A stretch of DNA of 57,258 nt, filler included, from Squatina squatina (Eukaryota): NCBI GenBank assembly GCA_031763465.1. It is 4 parts of 3 records of this genome, joined end to end, with 100 filler letters (N's around TTAATTAATTAA, not from the genome) between each part and the next. Parts side by side here need not be neighbours in the genome. Positions count along the whole stretch, not along the records: positions 1 to 15,583 come from JARFOE010528070.1; 3 more parts are not named here. The stretch is one strand, 5' to 3'. Numbering within the stretch: position 1 is the first letter of the stretch; every line of letters begins with the position of its first letter. The notes beneath the pieces are model-generated. The model worked only from the letters and a program-made list of their open reading frames with translations. It made no database searches and had not been told where the DNA came from. Shown in pieces: positions 4,074-44,724 of the stretch. The position numbers were made by a program, and so were the translations under genes.

Positions 4074-5002
4074 TCATTGACTTGATTCTTTTAATTCCCA
4101 CTTTCTAATTAATCTCAGAATCAATGTCCAGGGAAATATCACCACATTCTTCAGCTCTTCTCTGAACTTCCTCTGTGTCGCTGCATAAATGCACGGGTTT
4201 TGAATTGAACTTAAAAGCTTCAGCATGGCTCCGGTTTCAGTGGCGATATAAGCTGGGTTTGTGTGGCCACCTCGGTAATAAGTGGGGTTTGATAGTCTGG
4301 TAGATACAAAAGTCACTGCGCCTGTCAGCCACAAAAGTATAAAACAGCCCGATACAGCAAAGAGTAAAATGATGCATTTCCTTCGGCTTTCCATCTCTGT
4401 ATCGCTGTGATTCTCACTCCTGTGGCCCCGGAGTCCCCTGCGGGCTCTGCTGCCCACTAAAATCCGTCGGATGGTTAAAGAATTGAACAAGACAATTAAA
4501 GTAAAAGGAAGCCAAACGATCCAGACGGTGTGAAACCAGACACACCCTGCACCGAGAGGGGAGGAAACAAAAGCTACACTTGGCCCGTAGCCCCACTGCA
4601 CCTTGTTAATAATGTGCTGAGGTCCATAGATAAACAAAAAGGGAATATTCCTGAAAAAACTGAACACAGAGAATGTTGTTATAACTGCGGCTGCAGTTCT
4701 CGCGGTGCAATACTTTGTTTTAAACTTCTGGCAGCAGATAACGACAAATCGGTCAAATGTGAAGGAGACGGTGAACCACACAGACAAATCGAGGGCCACA
4801 GCAGTCATGTACAGAATGAACTCACACACGGGAGTGTGGGATAGGAAGGACAGTGGAAAGTGATAACTGAAAATATAATACAGCATCACATTGACGATCA
4901 TGACCAGTAGATCTGCTGTTGCCATGGACACCATGTAGACAGAGATACACTTGGAAAGGCCGCAGTTTCCTCGGGAGAGAATCACGATTGTCACCAAGTT
5001 CG
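4074..5002 (-). CDS. Class A orphan GPCR, GPR139/GPR142-like (expanded elasmobranch family), exon 2
   Basis: Strong acceptor ttctctcctctctctttcttacag|CG AAC TTG. Open frame with TM1-end to TM7 hydrophobic segments, TM2 MATADLLV, TM3 Cys and FDRF (DRY variant), TM5 Pro and TM7 NPCIY. Stop TGA ends at 4074. With exon 1 the total is 70+929=999 nt, giving 332 aa. Confidence 0.88.
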
Positions 5003-5385
5003 CTGTAAGAAAGAGAGAGGAGAGAAATAATGTTCCAGTTTCTGATTGAACTGCTCATTCTGCTCCATTCAGTGTGATTATCAATACGTAACCCACCCAC
5101 ACATTTTACTGAGCTGCTGTAGCGCTCAGTCTGCACGGGGTGGCGAGACAATCCGAAAATCCGCTAAACTCCTTCTGTCGGAGTTTCAGAACACGTTGCA
5201 ACTTCAGAAAGTTTATTGGATTAAGGGGAATATGGCAATTTCCGACTCGCAGTTCAAGAGTTGGTTCCAGTCACTACCGACTGTGTAATGCTGACATGTA
5301 GAAAACACGTTAGCTTCTCCAAGAAGCGATGTTAACAGGGAGACAGTTAACACCAATTAGTCACAAACAGGTTACAATGGCTCAC

Positions 5386-5455
5386 CGGGAAAACCGACAG
5401 CTGCCAGAATCGGATAGTAAATATCTTTGGTCAGAAAAATAGGAGGTCGCTCCAT
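5386..5455 (-). CDS. GPR139-like GPCR exon 1 (MERPPIFLTKDIYYPILAAVGFP)
   Basis: ATG at 5455, 23 codons plus 1 nt, donor CCCG|gtgag. Phase 1 joins exon 2 to give ...VGFPANLVTIVIL, completing TM1. The supplied ORF track misses this exon. Confidence 0.85.
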
Positions 5456-5516
5456 TTTCTGTGAGATTGGGTGAATTCTGTCGGAGATGAAAGTCTCTGA
5501 CTTGCGTATGTAAGGG

Positions 5517-5585
5517 AACCTATATTTATCCACACATCAATCCTCCAGCGAGTCAATCAGGTTAAATCATAATTAGCATTAGTTA
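5517..5585 (-). promoter_or_regulatory. Candidate proximal promoter of the GPCR (TATA-like and homeodomain-like motifs)
   Basis: Minus strand has GATAAATATAG about 65-75 nt upstream of the ATG, preceded by CTAATGCTAATTATGATTTAACC. Motif inspection only. Confidence 0.3.
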
Positions 5586-5719
5586 CAGTCATTTAACAAA
5601 TAGAATCAGATAAATGGTTATTCTTGCCTGATACGTCAGATTGAGAAATATGTGAAATTGTTATTGTACAGTTTTTAAAAATAAACAATTAAAACATTGT
5701 GTACAAGTGGAAAGTGAAA

Positions 5720-7452
5720 TCTCCCAGTACTAGAGCTCAGCCCATTCTTACTGTACTGCTGCAGGCATCATGACCCTGCCCTTGATTCACTCCTAGTGCA
5801 CAAAGTTCTCCAGAACAGGCGGAGAAACACATCCTGCAATACTGGTGCTGAAGCCAGTGAAGCATCACTAGAGGTGTCCGTCTCCTCCTGTACTTGTCCT
5901 ACCATACAGTTACACTAGGTTTGTCCATGCTCCTCAGGTACTAGTAGCCTGCCTACACTTGAACAGGCTCCTATGCTAATAGTGGCAGCATTACACTAAC
6001 ACCACTATTGACTGAGCTGCTCCAGTGCAAGTGTTACGCCGCCACTGCCATTAGATGTGTGCGTGTGTTCTCCAGTACTAGTGGTACTGCGCCACTGCCA
6101 TTAGATGTGTGTGTCTGTTCACCAGTTCTAGTGGTACCCCAGCACTGCCATTAGATGTGTGCGTGTGTACTCCAGTGCTAGTGGTACTGCGCCACTGCCA
6201 TTAGATGTTTGCGTGTGTACTCCAGTGCTAGTGGTGCTGCACCACTGCCATTAGATGTGTACATGTGTTCTCCAGTGCTAGTGGTAGCCCGCCACTGCCA
6301 TTAGATGTGTGCGTGTGTTCTCCAGTACTGGTGTTACCCTGCCACTGCCATTTGATGTGTGCGTGTGTTCTCCAGTGCTAGTGGTACTGCGCCACTGCCA
6401 TTAGATGTGTGCGTGTGTTCTCCAGTGCTAGTGGTACTGCGCCACTGCCATTAGATGTGTCCGTGTGTTCTCCAGTGCTAGTCGTGCCGCTACTCTTACA
6501 CTAGAGTTGTTCGTGCTTATTCCGCACTCTGTGCCCCTACATTTACAGTAGAGATGACTGTGCATCCATGGTATATTGGGACACAACATTTACAGTAGAG
6601 GTGGCCGTGCTCCTGCTGTACCATTGGTCCCCCTACATTTATATTGGAGGTGACCATGCTCCTCCTGCACTAGAAGTGCCCCTATAAAGTACACTAGGTT
6701 TGTGCATGCTCTTTTGGTAACAGTGGAATTACTAGAATTCCTCCTCATGTACTAGTGTCATGCCTACACTTTCACTTACACTGAACCTGGTCCTCCTGTA
6801 ATAGTGGCATGCCTGCACTTCAACTGACAATTACTGTGCTCCTCTTGTACTAGTGACATGCCAACACCTACACTTATAATGAGCCTGCTCCCCATAAACT
6901 AATGTTAACTCTACACTTACACTTACACTCCTCATGTACTAAAGTGATTGCTTCACTTGCACCGGTGGTCACCGTGCTCCTCCGATACTTGTGGTAACGC
7001 TGCATTTACGCTAGATTGGTGCATGCTGCTCTGTTAATAGTCATATCAATAAAAATGTGGTACCAATGACCCTGCTCATCTGCTCTTGGTACACCAATGA
7101 TACACCACATTTACAATGGAGATAACAGTGCTCCAACGGTATGAGTGATAGCCTACCTTTACACTAGGGGTGAGTGCGTTGCTCTCCTATTAGTGGTACC
7201 CCTACACTTAAACCGGAGGTGGCGTGTTACTCTTGTATTAGTGATACGCCTAATATTAAACTAGGGTCAAACATGTTATTATTTTATTAACAGTGTCCCT
7301 ACAATGACACTGCGGATAACATTGCTCCTCCAGCACTAGTTGTGCCACTACACTTGCACTAGTTGTGACCATGCTCCTTCAGCACCGTTGGCACCCTACA
7401 CATACACAAGAGATAACCGTGTTCTTCCGCTACTTGTGGCACTGCTACATTT
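5720..7452. repeat. Satellite/minisatellite array, about 47-50-bp unit (left arm)
   Basis: About nine well-conserved 50-bp units GCCACTGCCATTAGATGTGTGCGTGTGTTCTCCAGTGCTAGTGGTACTGC at 6041-6490, flanked by decayed units (CCTACACTTACACTAG...GTGCTCCTCC...TACTAGTGG). Confidence 0.85.
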
Positions 7453-8292
7453 CTTAGGCAGTTCCTTGGGGAAGACAGTGACATACTTCCACTCCAGTGT
7501 TATGGGCTCAGAGGTGACGAAATAGCCCAACACGGGATCCACAATCTCTGCCACAGATGGTGTTTGATGGGGCGAGGAGATGGGATGCTCGAGTCTTCAC
7601 ACTTCCCTCCGTGGCTTGTGCTAGGCTTCCGCGTGCTCCTGTCTAATAAGCTCAAAGTGATCGATGCCTTCAGGATGGTTCTCCTCCACTTCCGGCGGTC
7701 TTGGACCAGGAATGTTTCATTTTGTTTCAGCGGGCTTTTGAGGGCGTCCTTGAAGCGATTTGTCATCCTACCTAGTAATTGATTGCTGTGACAGAGCGTG
7801 CAGTCGAGTGCTTGTTTCGGGAATCTTGTGTAAGGCCTGCGGAGGATGTGGCCCGCCCACCACAGCTGATTGAGCGTGGTCAGTCCCTGATGCTTGGGTT
7901 GCTGGCCTGAAAAAGGACAGTGATATTATTACGCCTATCCTACCAATAGATTTGCAGGATGCTGCGGAGGCAACGTTGGGGATATTCTCCAATGTTTTGA
8001 GGTGTCTGCTTTACATTGTCCATGTCTCTGACGCAGAAAATAAGACAGGTAGCACTGCTGCCCTGTAGACCATGATCTCCGTGATGGGTTTGAAGTTTTG
8101 GTCTTCAAACACTCTTTTCCTCAGGTGACCCATGGCTGTACTGGCACACTGGCGGTGGTGTTGGCTTTCATCGTCGATGACTAGCGTCGCTGAGAGGAGG
8201 TTACCAACTTCTGGAAATTGGTTCATGGTGTCCAAGGTGTAACCGAGGATCTTTGTAGAATAGGGTTGATCAAGGACATTTATCTTTCAGAT

Positions 8293-8949
8293 TCCAAACA
8301 AAAAAAGCTGGAAAAACTCAGCAGGTCAGGCAGCATCTGTGGAGAGATAAACAGAGTCAACGTTTCGGGTCAATAACCCTTAGTCAGAACTGAAAATAGG
8401 CGGAAATACACCAATTTTAAAGCACTGACAGGCAAAGGGGTGGGGTTGGGAGGGAAAGGGAAGGACAAAGGGGAACATAATACTGTGATTGCCTGGAAGG
8501 CAGATGAGATTAGGAGATGATGCAAGGCAGTCAGAGGTGGTAATGGCAACATTATGAAGCACATTGCATTCAGATGGGGTGTAAACGGGGGAAAAACAGA
8601 AGCAGCCATTAGAGGGAAACGAAAAATAGACCTGATTTAAAATGATGAAATGATAAAAATGAAAAAGAATGATAGAGCAGAAGTTATGCTCTGAAATTGT
8701 TGAACTCAGTGTTAAGTCCAGAAGGCTGTAAAGTGTCTAATCGAAAGATGAGGTGCTTTTCCTCGACTCCTTTGCCTGACAGTGCTTTAAAACTTGCTGT
8801 ATTTCCGGCTTTTTTCAGTTCTGATGAAGGGTCATTGACCCGAAACGTTGACTCTGTTTTTCTCTCCACAGATGCTACCTGACCTACTGAGTTTTTCGAA
8901 CTTTTTTTTGTATTCTAGATTCCAGCATCCGCAGTATCTCGCTTCTGTG
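8293..8949 (-). mobile_element. 5'-truncated Penelope-like element with inverted terminal repeat, nested in the RTE
   Basis: Minus 8684-8766 encodes EEKHLIFRLDTLQPSGLNTEFNNFRA*, typical of the PLE GIY-YIG endonuclease C-terminus. The 3' repeat at about 8293-8445 (minus) is mirrored by an inverted copy at about 8767-8949 (plus). Direct repeat TATCTTTCAGAT at 8281-8292 and 8950-8961. The RTE reading frame resumes across the insertion. Confidence 0.82.
8817..8853 (+). ncRNA. Minimal type I hammerhead ribozyme motif (PLE-associated)
   Basis: AGTT-CTGATGA-A-GGGTC-ATT-GACCC-GAAA-CG-TT-GACT. Core CUGAUGA and GAAA, 5-bp stem II, stem I AGUU/GACU, palindromic AACGTT in place of stem III. Confidence 0.7.
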
Positions 8950-10161
8950 TATCTTTCAGATGTTGAGCGTAAGGCCCATCCTCGCGTATACCTCAGTGAA
9001 TTAATCCATGATGGTCTGGGGCTCGGCCTCTAGGTAAGGCCCATCCTCGCGTATACCTCAGTGAATTAATCCATGATGGGTTGGAGCTCGGCCTCCGAGT
9101 GTGCGCGCATGCAAGTGTCGTCTGCATACTGCAACGCGATGACAGAGTTTGGAGTGATCTTGGTTCTGGGATGGAGGCGATGAAGGTTGAACAGTTTTTC
9201 ACTCATCCTGTAGATTAGCTCCACTCCAGCGGGGTGCTTCATGGAGAAGCGTTGGAGTGTTTTGGCGAAGAAGAGGGAGAAGAGCATTGGTGCAATGATG
9301 GCACATTGCTTGAACACAATTGTCAATTTCCTTGGTTCTGTGATGGATCCATTGGTAAGAATCATGACTTGCACAACATCATGGAGCAGGCAGAAGATGG
9401 TGATGAATATTTGCGGCCAGCCAATTTTGAGACGGACACCCAATACTCTCTCCTGTTGACAGAGTAGGAGGACATTGTGAGGTCAATGAAGGCCATGTAC
9501 AGGGTTTGAAGCTGCTCTCTCCCTTTGTTTTGGAATGTCATATGATGAAGATCATTTCCATTGTACATCTTCTTGGGCGGAATCAGCATTGTGACTCTGG
9601 GAGCAGCTCTTCAACATCTGGGAGCAGGCAGTTGAAATGGATTTTCGCGATGACCTTCCCTGTGGCAGACAGTAGGTAGATCCCTATGTAGTTTCTGTAA
9701 TTGGACCTGTCTCGTCATGATTACACCTTCACTGAGCTCCCCTGACATGGTCTCCACCCTCCAGATAAGGGAGATGAAATCATGGTTGGTGCCAAGTGTA
9801 CTTTTCTGCCCTGTTTCAGTATTTCGATGGGGATTTCTATTGCAACAGAGGCCTTATTGTTTCTCAGCTGTTGGATAGTATTTTCAACATCATGTCAGGC
9901 TGGGCTTGTGCCGAGATAATGGCGGGTAGCATGTTGTGGAATAGAATCAAGGACAATTAGGTTGAAGACCAAGTCTTGGTTGAGGAGGTCCCCGAGTTGC
10001 TCCTTCCAGTGGGCGTTGACTGCCTCTCTGGCCTTGATGGGCACCTCTCCTTTCTTAGCTCTCAGCAGAGTAGGTTGCTTGGGCCACAATGGTCTTGCTT
10101 GCGCTGAAGAAAGCACAAACGTCGTGTTTGTTGACTAGTTACTGGATTTCCTGCGTTTGCA

Positions 10162-10990
10162 CTACATTTAGACTCTTAGTAACCATGCTATTTCAGTACA
10201 TGTGGTACTCTCACATTCAGTAGAGATAACAATGCTTCTCTGGTACTTGCTGTACTCCTACATTTACACCAGACGTGACCATTCTCTTTCAGTACCTGTG
10301 GCACCCTACACATACACTAGAGATAACCGTGCTCCTCCAGTGCTAGTGGTACCTACACATACACTAGAGATAACCGTGCTCNNNNNNNNNNNNNNNNNNN
10401 NNNNNNNNNNNNNNNNNNNNNNNNNNNNNNNNNNNNNNNNNNNNNNNNNNNNNNNNNNNNNNNNNNNNNNNNNNNNNNNNNACCTACACATACACTAGAG
10501 ATAACCGTGCTCCTCCAGTGCTAGTGGTACCTACACATACACTAGAGATAACCGTGCTCCTCCAGTACTAGTGGTAGCAACACATACACTAGAGATAACC
10601 GTGCTCCTCCAGTGGTACCTACACATACACTAGAGATAACCGTGCTCCTCCAGTGGTACCTACACATACACTAGAGATAACCGTGCTCCTCCAGTGCTAG
10701 TGGTACCTACACATACACTAGAGATAACCGTGCTACTCCAGTAAGGTACACTGAAAATTGCAATGTTACTGACCGTACTCATTCAGCACCGAGACACACC
10801 CGAGAACTGTACTTGCCTCTCCGATACCAATATTATCTCTACACTTACTCTAGATATAAGCATTCTCCTCCTTTACTAGTGGCACCGACACATATATTAG
10901 AACTCATCGTGCTCCTCCGGTACTACTGCAACACTTGCACTTTTAGTATGTTGAATGTGCTTCTCCGATCCCGGTGGAACATTACACTTA
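10162..10990. repeat. Satellite/minisatellite array, 47-bp unit (right arm)
   Basis: Tandem TAGAGATAACCGTGCTCCTCCAGTGCTAGTGGTACCTACACATACAC at about 10300-10740, with 41-bp deletion variants and an assembly gap at 10382-10481. Same family as the units just before 7452. Confidence 0.85.
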
Positions 10991-11574
10991 CATGAGAGGT
11001 GACCCGTGCGGCACGTGCGGTGCAAATGTCCGGCGCTGATTTTCCAACTGTCAAAAATGTTCAGCACTGGCCCTGGCTCCTGGACTAAACTGTGCACTTG
11101 TTCCTTTCGGAAGTTCTCGTTCACCTACCCGTAATACCACTAACAAACACCCAGAGAGACGCTGCTTGTTGCTTGGTGGTGTTTGTCAGGAGTGATTCCT
11201 ATTGGACTCAATGTATTCGTGTCGTGTACTTGAGGAAACATTTTAAGTTTACAATGACTGTCTTTGGCCTTTCTGCAGTGCCTCTCCACCTGCGCACTGG
11301 TGGACCTTCCTCTGTTCCTGAGCATATGAAGAACAGGGAGATGTAAATGGTGAGGAGCCGCAGGGCAAGCAGGCAGCTGGAGCCTCGCTTCAGGAAGAAC
11401 TCGCCCAGGAGAGCCCAGTGCCCGCTGTCAGATACCTGTGACTACAGGTCAGACACGGTACCAGAACAGGAATAAGACCCGAGACGTCTGATATATAAAC
11501 CAGTCATGCTGTCACCGAGCTCTCCTCCACAACTACCGAGGATCCTGTCTGAAAACATCCTGATTCTCTTTAAA

Positions 11575-12030
11575 CAAACAATTACATGGAATCTACGGCA
11601 CAGAAACAGGCCATTCGGCCCAACTGATCCAGGCTGGTGCTTATGCTCCATACGAGCCTCGTGTAACCCTCTCAGCAGATCCATATTTCACTTTCTCGCT
11701 CAAGTAGCTACTCTTAAATGCATCTAACCAAGAGCCTGGATTATTCCACAGCAGTGAATTCCACAGGGTCACAACCCTCTGAGTCAGGAAGTTCCTCCTG
11801 AATTCCCTATTGGATTTCTTAGTGAATATTCAACGTGGCCCCCAGTTTAGGACTTTACAGCGAGTGGAAACATCTCCTCCACATCCACCCTATCAAACAC
11901 CGTCATATGTTTAAAGATCTTTGTCAGGTTACCCATCAGCCTCTCATTTGTAGAGAAAAATTCCCACCTGTTCTATGCTTCCTGATTGTTAGCATCCTTA
12001 GAAATCTTAGTTGAAACTTCTCCAGTGACT
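11575..12030 (-). mobile_element. CR1 LINE 3' fragment
   Basis: Plus strand ACATGGAATCTACGGCACAGAAACAGGCCATTCGGCCCAAC...GTGAATTCCACAGGGTCACAACCCTCTG is the reverse complement of a CR1 3' end. Confidence 0.6.
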
Positions 12031-12858
12031 CTACATCCTTCTTGTAATCTGTCTTTCTTACCGAGTCACCTCACCTTGGCCAAGCCATCCCCCTTATCCC
12101 AAACTGCTGAAATGAAAGGAATTCATTCTGTGTGCTTTCCCGTTTTGTGAACCGCCGGTGACCCTGCCGGTTCCAACAGTTATTGGTCTGGTCAATCCCA
12201 GCGTCTCCACAGTCCTCAGCGCTCCTTCAGCACCAGGCAGTTCTCACCTGCTGACAGCTGCCATCCAGCTCGGTTTTTGTAGGACTGAGGCGTCACTTCC
12301 TGATATTTGGTGTTGGATTGTTTCCCCTTTCAGAAGAAAGTTCCGAGTGTGAAGACACTCCCCGTGGCTTTATATGGATTGGAATCCAGGGGCCAGAATG
12401 CCGTCCTTAGTGGGGTTGGTAACAGGGGCAGAAACCACATAATAAATTCCACGTGAATATTCTAGTGATTGCCGACATGTCGGCCGGACTGAAGGAAGAC
12501 CTGTTGAGAAAGGATGGGGTGAACTGAAGTATACTGTGGCAGCAACTGCGTATTGCTGTTCAACTGTCTGGTGACCAATGCAATGAGCCACGAGGACTGG
12601 TTATGGTGAACCTGGTTACTGCAGCGCACTGTTACACGGGCACTGACGGCTGTTTCCTTGGCTGCTACAGGAATGTTACTAACCCCATCCCGCCTTTCAG
12701 TAACCATGCAGGAATTGCTGGAATTGGCACTCAATTCCTCATTCAACCTCCTCCCCCTGGGCTTGGACCGTGCCCTGCGGGCGCTCCCTGACCTCAGGAC
12801 CATAAACCCCTGACGTCCTTTGTTGTATTTCACACTGTAATAACAGGCTGAAAATAAT

Positions 12859-13597
12859 GGGCCTGAAATTGCAATTGGAGGCTTCCTGCGTCCGGATGCC
12901 TCCAAACGCAAAAAAACCGACGAACTTCCCTTAGGGTCCTGGATCCACGGGAGTTTGCGACTTTCAGCCCCCCCTCGTTGGAGATTCGGAGCGGGGCTGT
13001 CTCGGTTCCCGGGCAAGTCAAAGGTAAGAGGCTGGAGAGGTCACATGGGAGGCACCAGCCAATCAGGTAGGTCTATCTTTCGATGAAGTTTTGACAGTTC
13101 ACAGCGATCTGTCAAGAACTGTCAAACTTCAGTGGAAGATGAAAAATAACACAAACACATCACAAAACATTTTAAAACGATTTTAACATTAACATTTAAT
13201 TAAAAGGGAGATAAATAACACAATTTTGGGGAAATTTCTTGAAAAACGTTTAAAATGTTCAACAGCACACTTACCTTTCTGTGAATGGTTTTAAAGTAAT
13301 GTCCCAGTAGTTTTTTTGTTTTAATTCTTTTTAACTTTTCCTACGATGTTAAAGCCAATTTCTTACACTTGATTTTAACAAGCGTAAGAAATTTCGAGAG
13401 ATCCCCAGCAGAAAACTTTACAAAAGTATTACAAAGTTATGTGGTGGGGATGGGCTTCACAGCCTCGGCCTTGGTGATAGATCGCAAATGCAGGTTGTGC
13501 CAGCTTACGATTGACAGCCCCATACCCGGCTTTTGCGATGTCTGCCCGGGTGTGTGGGTACATCGTTCCCACCCGGGCAGATCGCAGTTTCAGGCCC
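12859..13597. mobile_element. Non-autonomous TIR element (MITE, PIF/Harbinger-like)
   Basis: Termini GGGCCTGAAATTGCA and TCGCAGTTTCAGGCCC are inverted repeats. AAT flanks both ends (12856-12858, 13598-13600). GC-rich arms surround an AT-rich core. Confidence 0.7.
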
Positions 13598-14078
13598 AAT
13601 GTGTGAACGTCTGAATGTGAGGGTACAGTACGTCAGAAAGCAGCATGCTCAGAAACTGCTCTGATCCAAATTGTTTCACAAACTAATGTTTGTCTTATCT
13701 ACCTCATTGTTTCAATGAGTTCAGCGCCAGATTTCCTGCCGCGCCCCAACCCGGGATCAGATTCCAATTACCGGGCGTAAATGGGCCGTGTGCCTCTGCT
13801 CGATATTTAATTCAAAAAAACTGGGGAAAGTCCTACCGTGGTCACGGCGATGTCACAAAGCTGGGCTGAAATGCCAGTCGCGGTGTGCTCAGTATGGTTA
13901 TGGGTCAGGAAATGAAATCCAATCCCTGAGATTGATGTCAGTTATCCGCAATCGGGGGTAAAGTAGTGACTGCAGCAAGCACACAGAGCAAAACAGGATG
14001 AGGATGATGCAAATGGAGCGATGGAACTCCACCAATGATCCCTCCATTAATTTTCCTCTCTGAGCACCGCGCAGGCAA

Positions 14079-34588: not shown

Positions 34589-35193
34589 CTGCAAAGGAGA
34601 CACAAATAAACAAAAGTCNNNNNNNNNNNNNNNNNNNNNNNNNNNNNNNNNNNNNNNNNNNNNNNNNNNNNNNNNNNNNNNNNNNNNNNNNNNNNNNNNN
34701 NNNNNNNNNNNNNNNNNNGGGCAGAATCAATTGAAATAGCGCAAAAGATCGCGGAATTCAAAACGTGAGTTATGTTCAGAACCATTTAAACTTATTTTGC
34801 TATGGATTTACAATTTGTATGATGGGAAGGGAGAAATGCTTGCGGACAATGGGTCAGTTAACACCGAGAAAATCATTACTTTGAATTTAGCTTTCTGCAA
34901 CAATAGTATAAAAATTTGCTTGCAACATTACAGAATGGTAACAAGGATTAAAACCTCAGAAACATCAGTAAAATCCTAGAGAGCTGTTTAACATTCCTTG
35001 TGGTACAGCAGTTGTAAAAAAGTATATTCAGTTAAACAATTAACAAAAATATATATTTAAAGAAAAATCAAAATAATAAATTATTACTTCAAGCACTGTG
35101 CATGGGGCACAGATTAATGGAATATATGTTGAGTAATATAATCATATAAATGTATCCATTTGATTCAATGGCAGGATAATATATAGCCCTTAC

Positions 35194-35488
35194 CTGTCTC
35201 TTTGCATTCACCTTCCTCCAGGTGTATATCATTGAGCAGATGCTCCAGAATCTTCTCAGGGGTTCCGGCCACCACCACGTACCTGTTAGACAGTGAAGAT
35301 TCGACTGAGTCATCTTCTGCCGAGGATTGTGAAGGATTACTCCATTCATCCTCCGAATCCTCATCAATATATTTGAAATAAGGCACATCAAAAGCAGGCA
35401 AGGTCACACCAGTACTATCTTCAAAGATTTTGGAAACCCTTTTGTCTTCTATATAGGGATCAAAAACTCTTAGTATTGAACTTCCCAT
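35194..35488 (-). CDS. RAPGEF5: RAPGEF5 short-isoform first coding exon, including start of the REM domain
   Basis: MGSSILRVFDP...LPAFDVPYFKYIDE...RYVVVAGTPEKILEHLLNDIHLEE matches the recalled human short isoform MGSSRLRVFDP...LPTFDVPYFKYIDE. Donor ACAG|gtaagg. Confidence 0.92.
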
Positions 35489-36075
35489 ATTATATCGCTT
35501 ATTATTTTATTTCTAACTGCCAGCACATTACATAATATCAGTGTTGTATTTTGCTCTTTCTCACTGTTAGACTCCAGCTGATATGATCCATCTGGCTGCT
35601 GAGTGCTCTGCAGAGTATGTGAACCACTTACCTCCAATCATTCTGGGCACTCCCTGCTGTGGGGGCTGGGCTGGATGACGACACTTTTTTCAGGATGAGT
35701 ACATCTTGGCCTCGTTCTTTCACTCGAGCTGTGTTCACTTCATCATTCTGTTACATGGGAAAAGAAGCAAAACCTGGACTTTAAAGGGATTTGCACAAGC
35801 AGCTGAACAGTGCAGCTTCACCAGCCGAAATAGAAATTGCTGTGTTGTACAATATTCACGTAGAAACCTGACTTTGTATTTTTTCCTTCAGTTAATGCTG
35901 TCAACTCACAGCTAAATGGCAATTAATAATTCATGCATGCAAGAAAATGTTCTTTAATTTTTGTATTAATGTTTTAGTATACATGTTTTTTAACTCAAAA
36001 TAAAGATGTTTCATTTTTTTCCCTAATTACTTTACAAATATATTCAGATTTAAAGGTGGGAGAGTAAGAGACAAT

Positions 36076-43923: not shown

Positions 43924-44522
43924 CTGAAAAAAAAAATCCATTAATTCTTAATTTCATTCTGTGTTTATTTAGTTTGGAGCAGTATAAAATGCTTTGCTCT
44001 CTGCTTGGAGCAGAGAGAAGGATATCAGCCTATGACTTTTTGTTCCTCATCCGAAAGGCCAAAGTTCAGAAACATTCTTGTGTTCATTTTAAGCTGGTTA
44101 GCACTGATTTGGGAAACCTAGGCCTCGGTCTTTTTCATTTTCCCGATAACTATACATTTTTTGTTTGAGTGTTTGTCCACATTTGATTTCCTTGCTTTTT
44201 GTTCTTTATTGCTGTGGCTAGACAAATCCCGAGAATTGTTATGTCTGTGTGTGGCACTATTTTGCTGCTTTAGAATTGCAAATTAGTTTTAAAAGTGTCT
44301 TTGGTGCTGGTAGTTTATAGTTTACCTGCATTATGAGCACCTGGTACTTACCATTTCCCATCTCTATTCTATGAGCAAGAATCACCTCGGGTGTTTTAGC
44401 TATTTTAACTTCAGTGCTGTGAAAGATTGTACGTCAAATCACTTTTTTTGAAAAATTCTGTGGACATTCAGGTAGTGCAGCTAATTCTAGCTCTTAAACT
44501 GAGCAGAATATCTCATTGGCAA

Positions 44523-44703
44523 TAAAAACAGAAAATGCTGGAAATACTCAGCAGGTCAGGCAGCATCTGTGAAGAGAGAAACAGTTAACATTTCAGATCG
44601 ATGATGACCCTTCTCTCTCTGCCTGACCTGAGTATTTCCAGCATTTTCAGTTTTTTTTTAATTTCACATTTCCAGTATCCACAGTATTTTGTTTTTATAT
44701 TAG
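44523..44703. mobile_element. Minimal Penelope-like insertion (inverted pair of terminal repeats)
   Basis: AAAATGCTGGAAATACTCAGCAGGTCAGGCAG followed by the inverted CTGCCTGACCTGAGTATTTCCAGCATTTT. 14-bp direct repeat TATCTCATTGGCAA at 44509-44522 and 44704-44717. Confidence 0.78.
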
Positions 44704-44724
44704 TATCTCATTGGCAAGAGGTTT

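Follow-up and report, generated by a model that had tools for sequence, protein, structure and literature searches.

The sequence between positions 8281 and 8961 is very probably a decayed insertion of a Penelope-like element (PLE), likely of the Neptune clade, which likely arose by two-ended target-primed reverse transcription of an uncut RNA and in which the hammerhead ribozyme is predicted to lack activity. It lies in a window of 57,258 nucleotides from Squatina squatina, i.e. the whole stretch of DNA that was analysed, to which all positions refer. The locus is real and ordinary, a neutral fossil of known layout. Its features, with their basis in brackets, are as follows.

4846-14078, unstranded: duplicated block containing the insertion (piecewise alignment to the paralog on contig C730606, 79-91%; third copy on contig C1028853)
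7503-8280, minus strand: decayed C-terminal part of the RT of the host LINE, which we take from its motifs to be of the RTE type (alignment to LINE copies)
8281-8292, unstranded: left target site duplication (TSD), TATCTTTCAGAT, consisting of host RTE LINE sequence (repeat search; single in empty RTE sites)
8293-8766, minus strand: long arm, a 5'-truncated PLE in sense on this strand, with the ORF end, the 3' UTR and a pLTR with a broken hammerhead (93% to the family majority)
8355-8391, minus strand: minimal hammerhead with a broken core, CUGACUA, G8 being lost (motif reading)
8684-8764, minus strand: last 26 codons of the PLE GIY-YIG endonuclease, EEKHLIFRLDTLQPSGLNTEFNNFRA, and its stop (family copies extend into GIY-YIG, linker and RT)
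8766-8949, plus strand: short inverted arm, a 5'-truncated pLTR copy that meets the long arm head to head and overlaps it by 1 nt at 8766
8815-8820, plus strand: TCAGTT, the likely RNA start, in which A8817 is base 1 of stem I and the position where the pile-up of family 5' ends has its left edge
8817-8853, plus strand: intact motif of a minimal type I hammerhead, with its cut predicted after U8849 (motif reading, strict descriptor; predicted to be sequestered in a long hairpin)
8913-8949, plus strand: PLE tail of 36-37 nt, on the plus arm only, covering both 3'-end clusters of the family (3' ends at q475-478 and q507-512)
8950-8961, unstranded: right TSD (repeat search)
8962-9482, minus strand: decayed RT core part of the host LINE, containing a 65-bp tandem duplication at 8969-9095 (RVT_1 E=0.002, below the Pfam cut-off)

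The two TSDs are identical in 12/12 positions, as had been claimed. They are genuine, since uninterrupted RTE copies hold the site only once, as seen in 20 spanning alignments (loci L034-L060 and L359, some of which contribute two). This target site is similar to the beginning of the tail of the element itself (TTTCAGAT-like), which may reflect target preference or chance, and the TSDs of five other family copies lack the likeness. Between the TSDs, the long arm runs for 474 nt from 8766 to 8293 and terminates at the tail-less 3' site, while the short plus arm measures 184 nt. Aligned to each other (8300-8441 versus 8766-8908), the arms are 90% identical over 143 columns. The inverted copies of the original prediction stand; their reading as symmetric terminal repeats does not, because the tail is present on the plus arm and missing on the minus arm. 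The ORF remnant amounts to only 81 bp, and the C-terminal peptide on the minus strand (8764-8684) had correctly been assigned to the GIY-YIG type. The inverted pLTR, the 5' truncation, the tail and the short TSD of this insertion agree with the layout of EN+ PLEs, in which the pLTR is direct or inverted and a 30-40-nt tail is optional. On the plus strand, an ATG behind a polypyrimidine-CAG stretch opens a short frame (MLPDLLSF..., 8871-8949) that continues through the tail, and further acceptor-like AGs are found at 8818 and 8918. In tandem copies this frame may begin the ORF, which is the case for rotifer PLEs (PMC3846280), or the features may be splice signals.

Its identity as a PLE, also part of the original prediction, was borne out by family copies that extend upstream of the same ORF end. 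These carry the PLE RT motifs SLYTSIPH, GVAMGTRMGP, YIDD, LPFLD, YYKPTD, SSHP and RICS, as well as the linker GTFPCxxxxCxxC and a GIY-YIG region. Pfam matches of the family copies to RVT_1 (E=4e-4) and GIY-YIG (E=6e-4) are both under the curated cut-offs. The EN+ arrangement, a PLE-type RT followed by a C-terminal GIY-YIG in one ORF, was pieced together from overlapping copies and is carried in one piece by the homologues P0002 and P0006. Nine homologous database proteins share 50-70% identity with the family; the five that have names belong to rays and skates, which would fit an elasmobranch host. An upstream walk through genomic copies reached RT motif A, yielding no full-length copy and no 5' junction between pLTR and ORF. 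Linker GTFPCKLRRCYTC in L232, with similar ones in L249, L235 and L246, has the CX2-5CxxC form described for Neptune and Nematis (PMC8557442), and Neptune and Poseidon are widespread in vertebrates (bioRxiv 10.64898/2026.07.22.740005). The clade is likely Neptune, based on the linker motif shared with Nematis; Neptune is the likelier of the two given the vertebrate host.

For the hammerheads, all parts claimed for the plus copy were found at 8817-8853. Its 5' half consists of stem I AGUU (8817-8820), CUGAUGA (8821-8827), an extra A and stem II GGGUC/GACCC with loop AUU, and its 3' half of GAAA (8842-8845), CG-UU up to the predicted cut after 8849, and stem I GACU (8850-8853). The mutated core of the minus copy, CUGACUA with the loss of G8, was confirmed as well. 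The features of minimal type I hammerheads (CUGANGA...GAAA, U16.1, H17, an extra base between 9 and 10.1, palindromic 15.2-16.2) are present in the plus copy and in the family majority, and not in the minus copy, which supports the assignment to the published minimal type (PMC4209133). The family core is CUGACGA, from which the CUGAUGA of the window differs by C to T at position 7, a free position. The strict descriptor has its sole match in the whole window at 8821, with 0 in 200 dinucleotide shuffles, and an Rfam scan of 7600-9700 returned no hammerhead match at E<=5. A motif devoid of helix III may escape the Rfam hammerhead models.

Genome-wide, the hammerhead pattern has 1,428 exact matches and the 28-mer downstream of it 7,867, with a control of 0 in both cases, in support of the proposed abundance of the motif. 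Among 61 distinct copies that were not selected on the hammerhead, 36 kept the core and 16 kept everything. The core columns match the majority in 94.8% versus 93.4% downstream, and the hammerhead is intact in one of the four copies in the two full paralogs. These figures describe neutral decay. For the stem covariation suggested as a check, 41 distinct ungapped copies were used: 91.6% of the cells are paired and the common stem variants retain pairing (U-A/U-G in 37/41, G-C/G-U/A-U in 39/41), but no measure rises above column shuffles (best 47/500). Covariation of minimal hammerhead stems across species is already published (PMC4209133).

At least six pieces of the repeat had been counted in the 57 kb; besides the insertion, the window has 7 BLAST pieces at 6 places, and with the strict descriptor these 7 pieces gave no intact motif. 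A second head-to-head insertion, smaller and from a related subfamily, lies at 44490-44724; it has an apparent TSD (ATTGCCAATGAGATA-like), and only one of its arms bears a tail. An open frame on the minus strand (35168-35506, without a Pfam match) contains the exon VVVAGTPEKILEHLL, which is presumably RAPGEF-like, and the PLE piece at 44521-44689 might lie within an intron of this gene. The contig starts inside another family copy (1-76) that is 98.7% like the majority, so that a subfamily copy of much younger age lies some 8 kb away from the insertion. Among 100 of 195 matches listed, several (e.g. C10378, C374308 and C399213) diverge from the family upstream of the cut site, where they have AACA[A/G]CCT (antisense strand) in common, which suggests another repeat family with the same 3' end.

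As to activity, a transcript crossing the insertion has a predicted fold of -283 kcal/mol (z -13), in which the two arms form a hairpin of about 140 bp and the plus motif pairs over a long range with the antisense arm at a mean predicted probability of 0.91. With the intact copy predicted to be paired to its own antisense arm, cleavage at the locus is unlikely, and a dimer in cis is impossible here because the two hammerhead copies are antisense to each other. Cleavage would thus be improbable unless a short RNA starts inside the arm. According to PMC4209133, minimal hammerhead monomers failed to cleave and multimers cleaved weakly, and an anole PLE hammerhead cleaves with the help of the PLE protein (PMC11167929). 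The suggestion that this shark repeat is a genome-wide source of working self-cleaving RNA is therefore not supported, in view of the neutral decay, the inactive published monomers and the antisense copies in a hairpin.

In the proposed origin of the insertion, the endonuclease target lay in an RTE-type LINE, of which 12 bp were duplicated. Each nicked strand would then have primed cDNA on the element RNA, one cDNA starting from the tail-less site and giving the 474-nt minus arm, the other from the tail end and giving the 184-nt plus arm, after which both were joined head to head. The region, flanks included, was duplicated later; all copies would have drifted neutrally since, the plus hammerhead surviving by chance, and a transcript across the insertion is predicted to fold the arms into the duplex of about 140 bp and thereby to conceal the motif. 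The motif of the active element likely stood at the very start of the RNA, and cutting would have required a partner or the PLE protein.

The structure of the copies makes two-ended priming likely. On the 512-nt family model (C3 = q381; the cut follows q409), the 3' ends are bimodal, with 45 ends at q475-478 and 66 at q507-512, about 35 nt apart. Of 36 head-to-head pairs, 14 could be classed; the tail is on exactly one arm in 12/14 (p=0.006) and 2/14 are concordant. In the discordant pairs it sits on the shorter arm in 5 against 4 on the longer, with 3 unresolved, and some short arms are the tail alone. An unlikely alternative is that the inverted arm came from fold-back self-priming of a single cDNA, or from an antisense template, instead of from two primers. 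This mechanism is favoured in PMC3846280, and the joints do cluster at stem I and at an AACGTT palindrome. However, the shorter arm bears a tail missing from the longer both here and in roughly half of the discordant pairs, so the shorter cannot be a copy of the longer, and arms consisting of the tail alone also speak against self-priming. Since the tail is on the shorter arm about as often as on the longer, two primers fit better than a fold-back.

The 5' ends point to the start of the template. From 90 loci fetched with 28-mer matches, 83 hits had the pattern; 46 ending at assembly gaps were dropped and 9 reach q368 or further upstream, leaving 28. Of these resolved 5' ends, 17/28 start at q376-388, the first 13 hammerhead bases (p=3e-7); dropping the 46/83 gap-ended copies favours short copies, a bias that would not yield a 13-nt peak. 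Contigs of four sequencing runs gave no usable start or end signal. A TSD score of >=8 was reached by 5/58 single-copy hits (a few being the same copy twice), compared to 4/345 mismatched controls, and all five TSD-bearing single copies start at q376-380 and end at the tail-less site. The pile-up starts at TCAGTT (8815-8820 in the window), which we take to be initiator-like, so the RNA likely starts on stem I, the pile-up at the first hammerhead bases marking this start. RT that began in the upstream pLTR would reach the end of the RNA after 100 or 135 nt. Taken together, the short copies may record the PLE cycle, a proposal to which we give an even chance: the RNA would start at base 1 of stem I, RT from one of two sites in the upstream pLTR would run off the 5' end and leave stubs of about 100 and 135 nt with 10-15-bp TSDs, each of the two target strands in inverted insertions would have a start site of its own, as expected of a PLE protein dimer bound to the RNA, and the ribozyme would be mostly uncut in the template.

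It is rather improbable that the pile-up marks a splice acceptor or an RT stall and not a transcription start. A polypyrimidine tract with CAG, TTTTTTCAG just before the core, stops two bases short of it, and in D. virilis an intron end maps to helix I (PMC4209133). Yet the 16 upstream flanks tested are mutually unrelated, so no common upstream exon is seen, and some copies retain the CAG.

A footprint of cleavage itself was sought by comparing copies that start at cut+1 (q410) genome-wide with matched patterns two bases up (q408) or down (q412), which gave 27, 9 and 20 junction matches, respectively, the latter mostly indels by eye and from a pattern that passes fewer random flanks. The 27 matches at q410 comprise 7 plain junctions to unique flanks, 12 inverted ones (7 via stem I microhomology) and 8 indels, i.e. 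19 real junctions. At the control offsets, where the matches were classed by eye, there were up to 6, and about 7 before correction, plain-junction candidates. Of 60 inverted joints to the hammerhead start, also classed by eye, 14 stop at q410 (6 more being ambiguous), 23 at q402-405 and 2 at q398, and both main clusters are on 2-4-nt microhomologies. If the family hammerhead had cut its RNA in vivo, some insertions would have been copied from the 3' cleavage product and stem I would have given complementary cDNA ends for inverted joints. The 27 matches at cut+1, their real junctions, the inverted joints stopping exactly there and the protein-assisted cleavage of the anole hammerhead (PMC11167929) would agree with this. 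Nevertheless, we consider it doubtful: the plain junctions are no more frequent than at the control offsets and carry a TSD in 0/7, seven more junctions join via stem I microhomology, and the larger class of inverted joints stops 4-8 nt upstream of the cut at a GTT/TTC microhomology, so that microhomology accounts for both classes. In the junction patterns and the 60 inverted joints of this genome, no cut-site footprint beyond microhomology was found, and the copy junctions as such do not demonstrate in vivo cleavage. Many templates were uncut, since 23/60 inverted arms extend beyond the cut site; this agrees with PMC11167929.

The surroundings of the insertion were duplicated with it. Contig C730606 has both insertion junctions in common with the window (about 89%), the match beginning at the start of a GPCR exon and continuing past position 14,000; in C1028853, the left junction is matched as far as the contig reaches. 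The insertion is thus older than the duplications. These two further copies with junction flanks raised the idea of a larger mobile unit that included the insertion, which was rejected; segmental duplication is preferred, as the match continues past the LINE into the GPCR start. The 65-bp tandem duplication, 8 bp from the right TSD, has 2 copies in the window and 4 in the paralog (L002 1802-2058). The GPCR is a single-exon rhodopsin-family receptor on the minus strand (4077-5054; open frame of 326 aa; Pfam 7tm_1 E=1e-20), presumably related to the GPR139-like receptors expanded in cartilaginous fish, and its start is duplicated along with the insertion on C730606. An intronic location, which the original prediction had proposed for some copies, is not shown for the 8281-8961 insertion, which sits inside the LINE about 3.2 kb upstream of the GPCR coding exon. 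Although the plus motif is intact and shares the duplicated block with the start of the 7tm_1 gene, its retention as a working host ribozyme acting on this neighbour is hardly credible, as both hammerheads of the paralog are broken, one intact copy in four equals the 26% background, and the motif runs antisense to the GPCR, with its sequestration predicted.

To the questions of what PLE hammerheads do and how inverted copies and tails form, the family statistics make a modest contribution. They point to an RNA that is uncut and starts at stem I, with two RT start sites used as a pair, and they argue against taking cut-site junctions as proof of cleavage in vivo without a control for microhomology.

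Both the insertion layout and minimal hammerheads are already published (PMC4209133, PMC3846280, PMC8557442). In the papers searched, the motif of this family is not described for sharks; the family may be listed in supplements outside that search, or in Repbase or Dfam. According to PMC4209133, the minimal hammerheads of metazoan PLE pLTRs share with the present ones the CUGANGA core, one extra base before stem II, G10.1-C11.1, the palindromic 15.2-16.2 CG without loop III, a short stem I, dispersed truncated copies and opposite-strand pairs 100-700 bp apart. Stem II differs, with 5 bp and a 3-nt loop here and 7-8 bp in Schistosoma (PMC4209133). In two supplementary files of that paper, shark, skate and chimaera terms are absent, and its Results contain no cartilaginous fish. 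In bioRxiv 10.64898/2026.07.22.740005, hammerhead-bearing derivatives of PLE pLTRs are reported in the one chondrichthyan sampled. The non-LTR retrozymes of that preprint form head-to-tail tandem arrays, unlike the head-to-head arms with an ORF remnant seen here; a tandem non-LTR retrozyme was rejected for this locus, the arms being inverted and 7600-9700 containing no direct hammerhead repeat.

The EN+ PLE layout (PMC8557442, PMC3846280) is shared in its 5' truncation, the adjacent inverted 5'-truncated copy, the 30-40-bp tail at one end only, a TSD of about 8-12 bp, a hammerhead near the 3' end and the CX2-5CxxC linker of Neptune and Nematis. The present insertion differs in having 81 bp of ORF only and no direct pLTR pair, and the sharp cluster of 5' ends at the first hammerhead bases is not stated in the passages of the two papers that were compared. 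PAc, a Poseidon element of Anolis (PMC11167929), is of another clade, and its evidence is biochemical, whereas ours is genomic copy structure only. In PAc, both strands are cut and extended, the main template is uncut RNA, no RNA-seq reads end at the cut site, and two internal RT start sites bound the tail, like the two 3'-end clusters of this shark family.
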